The notes beneath the pieces were generated by a model, which ran no database searches, was not told the origin of the DNA, and worked only from the letters and a program-made list of their open reading frames with translations. A program made the position numbers and the translations under genes. From Candidatus Bathyarchaeia archaeon (GTDB lineage Archaea; Thermoproteota; Bathyarchaeia; Bathyarchaeales; Bathycorpusculaceae), in assembly GCA_038882955.1 (NCBI GenBank), contig JAVZNC010000002.1, positions 96,001-160,000 of the forward strand: 64,000 bases of DNA, read 5' to 3'. Numbering within the stretch: the first letter of the stretch is position 1; each line of letters begins with the position of its first letter. Positions 35,137-58,954 of this stretch are shown in pieces.

Positions 35137-35211
35137 GCTCCGGTAGTATAGCCCGGTCAAGTATTCCGGCCTTTCGAGCCGGAGACGCGGGTCCGAATCC
35201 CGCCCGGAGCA
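35137..35211 (+). tRNA. tRNA-Glu(TTC)
   Basis: Acceptor GCTCCGG/CCGGAGC, anticodon arm CCGGC-CTTTCGA-GCCGG and T arm GCGGG-TCCGAAT-CCCGC. CCA is not encoded. Confidence 0.95.
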
Positions 35212-35244
35212 CTCGTTTTATTTTTATTTGAGCCCTTTGACTGG

Positions 35245-35267: not shown

Positions 35268-35551
35268 TAAGATTTTGTAACGCCTAATCCATGAGTCTCT
35301 AGCAAAACTATGGTAAACTGGTTGGTGCTGTGGTGGCTGTTGGTGCCTGATGTTGGGTGAGGCGTTGAAGGATAAGGAGCAGTGAGGGGTTGTGAAGGCT
35401 ACATTTTTGAAGGCTTTTCTTTTCGATAGTGATAGACCCCCTCTAGGTTTTTGGCTGGAAAAGTTGTGCGTGCTTGCTTAGGTATTTTGGGTTTCTCTGT
35501 ATTTTCAGTCTTGCAGAAGTGCAAGTGGTTATAGATGTGTACGCGTCTGGT

Positions 35552-35737
35552 TTAATGCAAGTTTGTTATTGCGGGCACTTTCAAGGGCTTCTTTTTATCC
35601 GCCACTTTCACTATTTTGACTTTTGCGCTTTTCAGAGTTTGCTTTGCTGCTTCTTTTGCCTCTTTTCTGTTTTGGTGGTCTCCTTTCAGTTCAATCCATG
35701 GAAGCGTCTCGTCAAGCTTTATCCAAACCGCATACAA
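35552..35737 (-). CDS. small hypothetical protein (61 aa)
   Basis: ATG start with GGTGA upstream. The sequence MYAVWIKLDETLPWIELKG is protein-like. Confidence 0.6.
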   Translation of the reverse strand: MYAVWIKLDETLPWIELKGDHQNRKEAKEAAKQTLKSAKVKIVKVADKKKPLKVPAITNLH

Positions 35738-35824
35738 TAGTGTTCACCATTGTTGCTGTTGTTAGATTTTGGATTATTAAAACGGTTATGAATTTGGAAT
35801 ATTGATTTTTGTTAAGGGTTTCTT

Positions 35825-35840
35825 GAAAACTTATTTAAGG
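35825..35840 (+). promoter_or_regulatory. BRE/TATA promoter for the leader-mgtE transcript
   Basis: GAAAACTTATTTAAGG lies ~20-25 nt upstream of where the structured segment begins (35861). Confidence 0.5.
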
Positions 35841-35859
35841 AATTTCTGTACATCTTCTA

Positions 35860-36060
35860 TGGCTTAGGAGCGAGCATTAGGGTGCAGCTTGAGGGCTCCT
35901 CAAATAGGGTTCCATTGAAGGGGTGCCTATGGATGGGCAAAGATGGTGGACAAGATGAAGGCGAAAAGAGTACTATACCACAACAGCAGACGCCATGCGC
36001 AACCCCTGAGCCACACAGTTGCGCGCTCTAAAGATTCTGTTTTATGTAAGGTTTTTTCGT
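35860..36060 (+). ncRNA. candidate structured leader RNA / riboswitch-like element
   Basis: Closing helix 35860-35868/36005-36013, internal hairpins, an alternative GCGCAAC/GTTGCGC hairpin and a T-rich tract, all upstream of an MgtE-like gene. Confidence 0.45.
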
Positions 36061-36088
36061 CAATGATTCTTCTGGAGGCTCGCGACCG

Positions 36089-37306
36089 ATGACTTACACC
36101 ATGGATTTTAAGGTTTTTTCAAAAACTTTCAAAGAGTCTCTGGCGGCATACGCTTTTGACGTTGGCGGTATATTTGCAGGTTTTATATTCTACTTTTTGG
36201 TTATTTCGAAGCTTGATTCTTTTCAAGTGCCATGGATTATCGCGGCATACCCAACAATTTTAAGTGCTAAAGGCACCATCGGCGGGTTGCTTTCTGGGCG
36301 CTTAAGCACTTCGTTGCATGTCGGAACAATTTACCCAAGATTTCTTAATAACACAAAAGCTTTTTACACGCTTTTTGATGCTGTTGTTTTTATAAATTTG
36401 GAAACATGCATTGCCATGAGTTTGATTTCACTTGTTTTTGGGAGTCTCTTTTGGGGGATTTCCATCCTAAACTTTTCCGAAATTCTACCTGTTGTGGTGG
36501 CAACCATGGCTTTAGGCTTAGTCATCTCCCTACTAACAATGCTTGTTGCTTTTACCTCTTTCAAGAAAGGTTTGGACCCGGATATAACAGTGTATCCGAT
36601 AATGTCAACGGTGGCTGACATAGCCATAACGGTTTGCTATGCCATAGTTCTTCATGTTTTCTTTTTTGCAGATTTCTTTGGTAAATACGTAGTAGCCGCG
36701 GTTGCCACTGCATTCGCCATTTTAGCATGCTACATTTTAGTAAGAAACGTTCATGAAGAAGATTTTGTTAAGACAATTAGGGAATTTTCATTCACGTTGA
36801 TAGCTGTGGCTTTTATAGTCAACATTACTGGAACTTTTCTGCACATGATAAATAAAGTCATACTTACGGGTAGAAGCGAAATATACACGGTTTACCCCGC
36901 CCTAATAGATTTGGTTGGCGATGTTGGTTCGGTTGTGGGTTCCACGGCTACAACAAGACTTACTTTGGGTTTGCTTAAGCCTTCGCTCTCATCAATAAGG
37001 AGCCACTTAAACCATATTTTTGGAGCGTGGGCAGCGTCTCTGGTAATGTTTACAGTTCTATCAACTTTGTCGCTTTCAATAAACAATGTTCTTTCGCTTT
37101 TCGGGATTTTCACCGCAACCCTCTTAATTGCAAACGTGATTGCCGTCTCGCTGATAATTTTGATATCGTACGCCACTGCCATTCTAACTTTTCATAAAGG
37201 GTTAGACCCAGACAACTTTATCATTCCGATTGAAAGCTCTCTTGCAGATACTGTAACCTCTGTGGCTTTGCTTGTCGCCCTAATCATCTGCCGCTATGGC
37301 CTTTAG
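36089..37306 (+). CDS. MgtE-like divalent cation transporter (duplicated integral-membrane domain)
   Basis: Two repeats of the MgtE-type motifs, RLSTSLHVG/GLDPD..PIMSTVAD and RLTLG/GLDPDN..PIESSLAD, with multiple TM helices. Confidence 0.88.
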   Translation: MTYTMDFKVFSKTFKESLAAYAFDVGGIFAGFIFYFLVISKLDSFQVPWIIAAYPTILSAKGTIGGLLSGRLSTSLHVGTIYPRFLNNTKAFYTLFDAVVFINLETCIAMSLISLVFGSLFWGISILNFSEILPVVVATMALGLVISLLTMLVAFTSFKKGLDPDITVYPIMSTVADIAITVCYAIVLHVFFFADFFGKYVVAAVATAFAILACYILVRNVHEEDFVKTIREFSFTLIAVAFIVNITGTFLHMINKVILTGRSEIYTVYPALIDLVGDVGSVVGSTATTRLTLGLLKPSLSSIRSHLNHIFGAWAASLVMFTVLSTLSLSINNVLSLFGIFTATLLIANVIAVSLIILISYATAILTFHKGLDPDNFIIPIESSLADTVTSVALLVALIICRYGL

Positions 37307-37367: not shown

Positions 37368-38561
37368 ATGCCTCACCGTTTCGAAAAGATTGAGTATAAG
37401 CCCATACCCGCTAGGGAGCTTCTCCTAGAAATTAAAAACCTTTCAGAGTTAATGATTGACTTGGCATATTCAGCTGCACTATTCAATGACAGAGACCTAG
37501 CGGAAGACGTCTTAGAACTTGAGGCGCGCGTCGACACTTTAGCGTATCTCTTGGAGATTTCAATAATGGTTGCTGCAAGGGACGCCAGGGATGCTGAAGA
37601 TTTGCTTGGCGTTTCCACCGTGGCTTCTGCCGCGGACAAAATTTCTGATGCTGCTGCTGACATCGCCGCTATAGTAACGCAGAATATTGGCGTGCACCCA
37701 ATTGTGAGCGAAATTTTCGAAAAGGTTGAAGAACATCTGCTTCGAGTAAAGGTAGGCGAAGGTTCCGCGATTGTTGGGAAGCAAATAGGTGAGCTGAAAT
37801 TAGCTGCAGAGATGGGCGTTGACATAATTGCGATAAAGCGGAACAAGGATTGGGTAATTGACCCTAAAGAGACTGAGAAAATTTTGGGCGGTGACTTTTT
37901 GATTGCAAGAGGAGCACCAATTGGAATTGACGAATTCAAAGAGTTTGCCGAGGGAAAACACGTCAAAACTGAACAAATAAGCGTTTCAAAAAAGCGACAA
38001 AAGCAATTTGAGGAAATTGCTCGGCGCTTCGTCGAGTTAAAAGACACATCTGAACTGATGATCGACTTAGCCTATTCCTCGCTTTTATATGATAACAAGG
38101 AACTCGCTGAAGAAGTGCATAAACTTGAGGAGTATGTGGATAAGCTGCACACAGATTTTGAAATATGTGTTCTTTCAAGCGGCTTTAAGAAAGATGAAGT
38201 GCGAGGTTTTCTCGGTTTGATAAGGCTTGGCGTGGTTGCTGAGAAAATAGCGGATGCCGCGGCTGAAATAGCCGAAGTTGTCTTAAGAGGTTTAGAGCCG
38301 CACCCAATACTAAAGAGCACGATTAAGGAGGCGGAGGAAACTATTACGCATGTTTGTGTGACGGCAAATTCTCCGTTGGTCAACAAGACTATACGGGAGG
38401 CACGCATTCCAGAGGAAACTGGAATGTGGGTTCTCGCCATAAGAAAAGGCGAAAAATGCATAAGACCAAAACCCGACTCAAAAATCGAGGTTGGCGATGT
38501 CTTAATTGCGTCTGGATATGCTGAGGGTGCAGAGGACTTAAAGAAGTTAGCTTCTCCATAG
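37368..38561 (+). CDS. tandem PhoU + TrkA-C (RCK-C) domain protein
   Basis: Duplicated K..SELMIDLAYS...LE..VD.L...KI.DAA..IA unit, each followed by an RCK-C segment (G..I.AI.R..GD.LIA.G). Confidence 0.88.
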   Translation: MPHRFEKIEYKPIPARELLLEIKNLSELMIDLAYSAALFNDRDLAEDVLELEARVDTLAYLLEISIMVAARDARDAEDLLGVSTVASAADKISDAAADIAAIVTQNIGVHPIVSEIFEKVEEHLLRVKVGEGSAIVGKQIGELKLAAEMGVDIIAIKRNKDWVIDPKETEKILGGDFLIARGAPIGIDEFKEFAEGKHVKTEQISVSKKRQKQFEEIARRFVELKDTSELMIDLAYSSLLYDNKELAEEVHKLEEYVDKLHTDFEICVLSSGFKKDEVRGFLGLIRLGVVAEKIADAAAEIAEVVLRGLEPHPILKSTIKEAEETITHVCVTANSPLVNKTIREARIPEETGMWVLAIRKGEKCIRPKPDSKIEVGDVLIASGYAEGAEDLKKLASP

Positions 38562-58827: not shown

Positions 58828-58954
58828 TGGCGCCGGGGAGGGGATTTGAACCCCTGCGAGCCCGAAGGCCCACTGGCTTACTTGCCTTTTTCCAGCCCTT
58901 TCTGGTTGCTGTTTGATCTCGAGGCCAGCGCGATAACCACTCCGCCACCCCGGC
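58828..58954 (-). tRNA. tRNA-Ser(CGA) with 39-nt intron (58879-58917), CCA encoded
   Basis: Acceptor GCCGGGG/CCCCGGC, CTGGC-CT-CGA-G[intron]A-GCCAG, long variable arm GGGCCTTCGGGCTC, T loop TTCAAAT and G73. Confidence 0.93.

Follow-up and report, generated by a model that had tools for sequence, protein, structure and literature searches.

We analysed a 64,000-nucleotide stretch of DNA from a Candidatus Bathyarchaeia archaeon (the window) and describe here the leader that lies upstream of a gene for an MgtE-like membrane protein. The leader is flanked by a tRNA-Glu gene (35137–35212) on one side and a 405-residue open reading frame (ORF) on the other (36089–37306, plus strand). The product of this ORF matches Pfam PF01769 (E 9.1e-20) and has two MgtE transmembrane-domain stretches, with neither N-terminal nor CBS sensor domains found by Pfam. 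Its homologs carry source names such as 'magnesium transporter' and 'mgtE-like transporter'; those listed are close relatives only (at least 57% identity) and are uninformative on distant N-termini. The gene is present in 154 of the 301 genomes of the class. It is followed in the same orientation by a gene for a protein with PhoU and TrkA_C (RCK_C) domains (37368–38561, plus strand; PF01895 and PF02080), which also follows the transporter in related loci with enough sequence. The DNA sequencing runs that contain this stretch are labelled hot-spring metagenomes. A metal-sensing riboswitch or attenuator, either a divergent M-box or a new structured class, had been predicted for the leader, with control over both downstream genes.

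The transporter gene has its own Shine-Dalgarno site, GGAGG (36074–36078, plus strand), 10 nt 5' of the ATG at 36089; GGAGG precedes the transporter start in related loci too. The stored protein has 401 residues, which corresponds to a gene-caller start at a later in-frame ATG, probably that at 36101. We favour the start at 36089 because of this upstream GGAGG and because the ATG overlaps the stop codon of the preceding ORF, described below.

Conservation of the leader and its promoter

A transcription factor B recognition element and TATA box (BRE/TATA), TTGAAAACTTATTTAAGG, can be read directly from the plus strand at 35823–35840, and the element GGAAACTTATTTAAGG is kept in related leaders, so this part of the original prediction holds. 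Given the usual archaeal distance from TATA box to start, we infer that transcription begins at about 35860–35862. The leader would then be about 228 nt long, in agreement with the approximately 230 nt first proposed, both its length and its start being deduced from the TATA position. The G+C content is 0.48–0.58 over 35850–36030, versus 0.25–0.33 just upstream. The 5' part of the leader (35860–35928, plus strand) contains the conserved blocks GGYTTAGGAGCGA, with a Shine-Dalgarno-like AGGAG at 35866–35870, and a GTG at 35882.

DNA matches to the region from 35800 to about 35940 are present in ten of 41 related genomes. Nine of 24 same-family genomes have one, whereas the 16 that represent eleven further families in the order have none. 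All ten lie upstream of an ortholog of the MgtE-like gene on the same strand; the AcnX gene farther upstream is syntenic in the window's own genome only, where the leader element is present in a single copy. A pattern search of a genome collection with the most conserved block returned 44 stretches, 23 of which are leaders (22 of them with the ortholog within 620 nt) and 21 of which are bacterial chance hits or a Bacteroidales repeat; in metagenomes the same pattern returned 87 stretches. Motif filtering and deduplication left 76 non-redundant leaders, one of which was later removed as false. The 73 that were long enough, all homologous leaders from Bathyarchaeia, were aligned (alignment A1), and a second alignment contains six members of the genus (A2). 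A profile hidden Markov model (HMM) of A1 matches 14 of 17 loci of the same family, none of 13 loci from families f7, f11 and f37, and none of ten more distant orthologs. Conservation of the leader together with its strict linkage to the MgtE-like and PhoU/TrkA_C gene pair fits a cis-regulatory role; to that extent the idea of a control element for these genes stands, but its riboswitch nature is not supported by the results given below.

Conservation continues for about 70 nt upstream of the TATA box. A 61-residue ORF on the minus strand (35552–35737, TTG start, LYAVWIKLDETLPWIELKG...) is divergent from the leader promoter; it has no match in Pfam, NCBIfam or the PDB. In 70 related leaders its 5' coding end is conserved together with the intergenic block at 35760–35822 (consensus GGTAATTAAAACGGTTATGAATTT..GTTAAG), even though the gene farther upstream is not syntenic. 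The 61-residue ORF may be a conserved partner gene, and the intergenic block may be a divergent promoter or an operator region.

Start codons and overlapping reading frames

The most conserved part of the leader is a module (35917–35935, plus strand) in which a Shine-Dalgarno-like sequence, GAAGGGGTG (35917–35925), is followed by a twin start, ATGGATG, with ATG codons at 35929 and 35933. The columns of both ATGs are invariant in all 73 sequences of A1, synonymous sites within the block are frozen, and nucleotide conservation is above coding needs. Four conserved purine blocks, AGGAG (35866–35870), GAAGGGGTG, GGTGGA (35945–35950) and the GGAGG of the transporter gene (36074–36078), are all complementary to the 3' end of the genome's own 16S rRNA (GGAUCACCUCCU), as is GGGGTG.

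Two overlapping ORFs begin at the twin start. The ATG at 35929 opens a 9-codon mini-ORF in frame f2 (MDGQRWWTR*, 35929–35958, plus strand), the TGA of which (35956–35958) overlaps the next conserved start, the ATG at 35955, as ATGA; the mini-ORF ends exactly on the ATGA of that start in 56 of 69 leaders. The ATG at 35933 opens ORF-A (35933–36031, plus strand, frame f0; MGKDGGQDEGEKSTIPQQQTPCATPEPHSCAL*), an acidic ORF with an N-terminal sequence that reads MGKDGGQDEGEK..., and its frame crosses the start at 35955. The ORF-A stop is downstream of that start in 68 of 68 leaders, and the first 15 or so residues of ORF-A contain 32% aspartate plus glutamate and 2% lysine plus arginine across 69 leaders.

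Frame f0 is open from the GTG at 35882 (a 49-residue ORF). Over 35 codons that begin at the GTG block and extend beyond the third start, stops interrupt f0 in two of the 73 sequences, f1 in 70 and f2 in all 73, and the ratios of nonsynonymous to synonymous changes (pN/pS) are 0.58, 0.78 and 0.93 respectively. In the segment 5' of the twin ATG (35860–35928), f0 is open without protein-level constraint (pN/pS 0.82 family-wide and 1.62 in the genus), and one family member, L157, has a stop immediately 5' of the second ATG. We therefore take 35933 as the likely start of ORF-A and 35860–35928 as a 5' untranslated region.

The position of the third start relative to the twin start is strongly biased by frame. 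At distances of +10 to +55 from the second ATG there are 100 ATG triplets in the +1 frame versus five and two in the other frames, and at least one +1-frame ATG is present in 70 of 71 sequences. The start motif RATGAR is found 13, 22, 25, 28, 31, 37 or 40 nt away, each of which is 1 mod 3. That the spacing is variable yet always 1 mod 3 indicates that the frame relation is under selection.

The third start is preceded by the Shine-Dalgarno-like GGTGGA and begins ORF-B (35955–36092, plus strand, frame f1; 45 codons from the ATG at 35955, with a further in-frame ATG at 35943). The TGA of ORF-B (36090–36092) overlaps the transporter ATG (36089–36091), again as ATGA. An ATG is present at the position equivalent to 35955 in 67 of 68 leaders. 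Sixty-eight leaders have the transporter in the available sequence, and these fall into two types: in 18 ('direct') the third start is that of the transporter ORF, and in the other 50 ('split') ORF-B is interposed. Because the transporter ORF begins at the 35955-equivalent position in these 18, the start there is a real initiation site.

In split loci the third start and the transporter start are separated by a mean of 53.8 codons, over which f1 is free of stops in 47 of 50 loci; f2 and f0 contain stops in all 50 (means of 4.5 and 2.6 respectively), and 5.7% of shuffled versions of the stretch remain open. Overlap of the ORF-B stop with the transporter start is seen in 35 of the 50 (32 of the ATGA type and three of the form TGATG). 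Within the genus, pN/pS is 1.01 for ORF-B (i.e. neutral) and 0.62–0.76 for the overlap of ORF-A and ORF-B. An open frame with a neutral peptide suggests that the act of translation matters rather than the product; this is what a translated spacer would look like.

Orthologs from other families (34–57% identity), without a match to the leader, also have a short acidic ORF that overlaps the transporter start and lies one frame behind it. Examples, in families f7 and f37 and lineages L014, L015/16, L018/19/22, L021 and L023, include MEKSDLLKEELQVESEPDESSQH, MGESECDDGSQH, MTGHNEGQGIPGEGEHTEDT, VACCDEDGDGDK and VGGDDPDHKP, and these ORFs start after a Shine-Dalgarno-like site.

Five of the distant loci (L015, L016, L018, L019 and L022) have no plausible ATG, GTG or TTG in the transporter frame between the promoter and the conserved N-terminus, the sole GTGs of L015 and L016 being in the promoter block or immediately 3' of it. 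ACG is found at the position homologous to 35955, about 50 nt before the conserved N-terminus, and one frame behind there is an acidic ORF (V[A/T]C[C/S/N]DEDxD...) whose variation is of the synonymous type. These loci would need either initiation at ACG or a +1 frameshift. Loci of family f11 (L169, L171, L176 and others) are arranged differently, with a long N-terminal extension in the transporter frame containing acidic, glutamine-rich stretches (e.g. CIQEDPAQNEDNPSQ) and no separate acidic ORF.

Tests for a folded RNA

The M-box, or ykoK, Mg2+ riboswitch is described by Rfam family RF00380. Searches with cmscan (Rfam 15, 4227 families) at gathering scores identify two tRNAs and nothing else in the whole window, and a search of 35600–36300 with E values up to 10 gives only chance hits to NEAT1_2 and SCARNA7, with no M-box, ydaO or other leader. 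No described riboswitch or leader RNA in Rfam 15 therefore matches by covariance model, and the resemblance of some segments to conserved M-box stretches, which had been suggested, is unsupported. The leader does resemble the M-box in its location, since it too precedes, as a 5' leader, a gene whose product has an MgtE transmembrane domain (here PF01769), but it has neither a conserved multi-helix fold nor a terminator/anti-terminator pair, and its host is archaeal.

The predicted minimum free energy (MFE) of 35855–36060 is -52.4 kcal/mol, compared with a mean of -59.1 kcal/mol for shuffled sequences (z +1.66), with 190 of 200 shuffles at least as stable; the minus strand gives z -0.61. The five pairs of complementary segments that had been proposed are all present, but they are no more than chance would provide. 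RNAalifold on A1 yields a consensus of 16 pairs and -4.7 kcal/mol (folding -3.56, covariation -1.14). Although 94% of its cells are paired, changes on both sides of a pair are seen in just nine of 1168 cells, and these counts are biased towards structure because the structure was derived from the same alignment. Family-wide, the only candidate fold is a weak hairpin of seven pairs spanning the GTG block, which is paired in 91.6% of cells in the 73 sequences. The homologous leaders are strongly conserved with nearly no covariation, and the absence of a covariance-model match, of a thermodynamic signal and of an appreciable consensus energy argues against both a divergent M-box and a new structured riboswitch.

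The individual helices differ in how well they are kept. The proposed closing helix pairs 35860–35868, which overlaps the first Shine-Dalgarno-like site, with CCTGAGCCA (36005–36013), within the overlap of ORF-A and ORF-B (both arms on the plus strand). In A2 it is paired in 90.7% of cells with two of nine pairs changed on both sides, and a duplex search recovers it at the same place in five of six genus members (z -1.2 to -6.2). Across the family, however, the median duplex z is 0.09, with values below -2 in only four of 68. The closing helix may therefore be real and specific to the genus, and as such cannot account for the family-wide conservation. A candidate family-wide long-range helix joining the 5' end with CCTAAAC after the third start was also considered and rejected as not significant (median z 0.09).

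The two proposed hairpins (35889–35894/35898–35903 and 35904–35908/35926–35930) are partly kept within the genus (80.6% and 86.7% paired in A2 respectively); in the second, the invariant start-codon block forms the 3' arm. The two mutually exclusive pairings that would form a switch fare poorly even inside the genus: 35997–36003/36018–36024 is paired in 52.4% of cells and 35868–35876/36020–36028 in 61.1%, the second with no double changes. The T-rich tract noted downstream of these pairings does contain T-runs (36040–36043 and 36052–36057), but the run of six Ts is not conserved in A2 and is situated within an ORF, and a scan for bacterial-type terminators finds no sites.

Proposed translational control and alternative explanations

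Comparison of the aligned leaders establishes a conserved layout with defined frame relations and a lack of conserved RNA structure; translation of the ORFs, their coupling and a regulated balance between them we infer from sequence. With moderate confidence, we favour an interpretation in which the leader has a layout for translational control or coupling based on upstream ORFs (uORFs) rather than being a folded sensor, and we would class it as a new, archaeal version of uORF-based control of an Mg2+-transporter-like gene. Knowledge of post-transcriptional control in archaea is, as far as we are aware, very limited, and for the regulation of cation uptake in uncultured Bathyarchaeia there is none; in the literature searched there is no comparable archaeal MgtE riboswitch or archaeal uORF leader.

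Under this interpretation the Shine-Dalgarno-like blocks would draw ribosomes to the twin start at 35929/35933 on an mRNA that begins at about 35861. Ribosomes initiating at 35933 would translate the acidic ORF-A, crossing and occluding the start at 35955 and terminating out of frame at 36031. Those initiating at 35929 would translate the 9-codon mini-ORF and terminate where its stop overlaps the 35955 start, which could thus be fed either by the mini-ORF or by free initiation. From 35955, ORF-B would be read as far as its ATGA overlap at 36089, where termination and reinitiation would deliver ribosomes to the MgtE-like gene. Transporter output, and probably that of the PhoU/TrkA_C partner as well, would be set by which upstream frame is read and how far.

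Coupling of this kind has precedents, in that 13 of 14 gene pairs tested with ATGA or TGATG overlaps showed strict coupling, nine of the 14 being from an archaeon (PMC6728339). The ORF-B/transporter and mini-ORF/35955 stop-start overlaps are similar, with a Shine-Dalgarno sequence upstream of the downstream start, and the same overlaps recur in the proportions of split loci and leaders given above. The tested partners are normal protein genes, whereas the upstream partners here are short and ORF-B is neutral.

If the balance is regulated, the most likely signal would be Mg2+, acting through ribosome destabilisation on the acidic ORF-A. Bacterial precedents for acidic uORFs upstream of mgtA and mgtB make sensing of Mg2+ by the ribosome the most attractive possibility, by analogy. 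In Escherichia coli mgtL, the mgtA leader ORF of enterobacteria, a stretch rich in aspartate, glutamate and proline near the N-terminus leads to Mg2+-dependent intrinsic destabilisation of the ribosome and raised mgtA expression (10.1101/2021.02.02.429294). The Salmonella mgtQ, an acidic, translation-aborting 8-codon ORF directly before mgtB, promotes mgtB translation (PMC8092293). ORF-A resembles mgtL as a short leader ORF, acidic near its N-terminus, before an Mg2+ transporter gene, and resembles mgtQ as an acidic small ORF in the same position. It has no sequence relationship to mgtL, it runs across the next start in a different frame whereas mgtL acts through alternative stem-loops and Rho or attenuation, no Mg2+-sensing RNA fold accompanies it, and the density of acidic residues is lower (32% over about 15 residues). 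At mgtB, mgtQ opens a stem-loop that inhibits the ribosome-binding site; a conserved stem-loop of that kind is absent here, and length and layout differ.

The mgtL/mgtQ type is a functional class rather than a homology family. The leader has a conserved uORF with its own Shine-Dalgarno sequence and start, as well as an N-terminus rich in aspartate and glutamate, part of which bias may stem from purine constraints. Linkage to the downstream start would be by start-codon overlap rather than by stem-loops. At low Mg2+, ribosomes would abort on ORF-A or prefer the mini-ORF, freeing or feeding the 35955 start and allowing the stop/start relay into the MgtE-like gene; at high Mg2+, ORF-A would be read through and the 35955 start blocked. 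That the leader is an archaeal counterpart of mgtL and mgtQ in this full sense, i.e. with an acidic uORF one frame behind an overlapped entry start and the ribosome as Mg2+ sensor, is a tentative suggestion and one we regard as doubtful. If it is true, the presence of an acidic ORF one frame behind the transporter in several families, at 34–57% transporter identity, would point to an old regulatory device that does not depend on RNA structure.

Several observations weigh against translational control of this kind. The mini-ORF ends 3–33 nt too early in the other 13 of 69 leaders, and the ORF-B stop is 8–19 nt before or 7–32 nt after the transporter start in the other 15 of 50 split loci. At 0.58, the f0 pN/pS is higher than a genuine protein would be expected to show, and f0 has a codon-position periodicity (changes number 81/75/90 over the N-terminal part and 46/45/66 near the third start) that is too weak to serve as proof of coding. 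A purine-rich, T-poor composition combined with Shine-Dalgarno and ATG constraints would explain part of the stop-free frames and of the translations rich in aspartate, glutamate and glycine. The blockwise conservation of the approximately 70 nt 5' of the twin ATG, like that of the block upstream of the TATA box, is left unexplained by a translated leader, and alternative stem-loops connecting a uORF to the downstream ribosome-binding site, as in the mgtL/mgtQ type, are not conserved in the 73 leaders. Support is also overstated by the counts, as the related sequences are not independent of one another. Finally, no RNA sequencing run containing this DNA was found.

Four other explanations can be weighed against the same data. 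ORF-A and/or ORF-B could be stand-alone small proteins, such as accessory subunits of the transporter, with ordinary coding conservation and no regulatory role. Their frames are kept open, ATGA overlaps are typical for genes encoding subunits of one complex, and relatives of ORF-A are annotated as 'hypothetical protein' in 36 clusters (51–69 residues). However, the pN/pS values of ORF-B and of the overlap are not those of constrained proteins, ORF-B is missing altogether in the 18 direct loci, and conservation of the twin ATG exceeds coding needs. The C-terminal halves of the small ORFs cannot be aligned between genera and lengths range from 48 to 75 residues; there are no matches in Pfam, NCBIfam or PDB sequence searches, and a protein-word search with the window's own ORF-A gives no candidate homolog. 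We consider small proteins unlikely on these grounds. A fusion joining the small ORF in frame to the transporter was also considered and is ruled out by the frame analysis, which shows an overlap in a different frame. Binding of a trans-acting factor at the GAAGG(U/G)GG blocks and the 5' 70 nt, whether a protein (such as the PhoU/TrkA_C partner, or a transcription factor that acts at the DNA level) or a small RNA, would account for blockwise nucleotide conservation without helices, for three similar purine blocks about 36–42 nt apart and for conservation reaching some 70 nt upstream of the TATA box. Every block, however, is spaced from a conserved start codon as a Shine-Dalgarno site would be and is a match to the anti-Shine-Dalgarno sequence, the strict 1-mod-3 spacing is not expected of a protein-binding site, and no factor was identified; this seems to us somewhat less probable again.

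A riboswitch or attenuator, in which a metal- or metabolite-binding aptamer would direct alternative pairings that expose or hide a terminator or ribosome-binding site, is very unlikely. A long conserved leader before a cation-transporter-like gene, its raised G+C, the closing helix with two double changes in six genus members and the short hairpin over the GTG block are what would be hoped for, but the Rfam and folding results, the scarcity of covariation, the poorly paired switch helices, the absence of the closing helix outside the genus and the lack of a conserved T-run or terminator-like site all count against it, and conservation is highest at start codons and Shine-Dalgarno-like blocks. 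The least probable explanation, and a highly improbable one, is a programmed +1 frameshift by which the acidic frame from the twin ATG shifts into the transporter frame and adds an acidic N-terminal tail. The transporter is in the +1 frame relative to the acidic ORF in several divergent lineages, the five distant loci lack a plausible start in the transporter frame, family f11 orthologs have an in-frame acidic, glutamine-rich extension, and Shine-Dalgarno-like blocks are located inside ORF-A, as in prfB, a gene with an internal Shine-Dalgarno-like block and a programmed +1 frameshift. In the window and the family, however, the +1-frame ATG with its own Shine-Dalgarno site is conserved (67 of 68), and two shifts would be needed in the window because the ORF-B stop overlaps a separate ATG with GGAGG. 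No conserved slippery or shift site was found, so that the prfB-type arrangement of a gene lacking its own start and carrying a shift site is absent here, the five distant loci aside.

If uORF-based control of the leader is correct, uORF relays and acidic 'ribosome-sensor' peptides before Mg2+ transporter genes are not restricted to enterobacteria, and the compact leader of about 230 nt should be amenable to archaeal reporter systems. Long, G+C-rich, conserved archaeal leaders would also deserve a check for translated frames before being labelled riboswitches. Even if the model fails, it is a useful negative that the leader is neither an M-box nor another described riboswitch.

Two further features of the window are noted. 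Between the tRNA-Glu gene and the minus-strand small ORF there is a G-rich stretch (35310–35400) with a strong G skew (G+C 0.53–0.55, GC skew 0.6–0.7) and no Rfam match at gathering scores. At 58831–58954 on the minus strand, Rfam identifies a tRNA gene (49.2 bits) whose anticodon region carries a 43-nt insertion; ARAGORN did not detect this gene.

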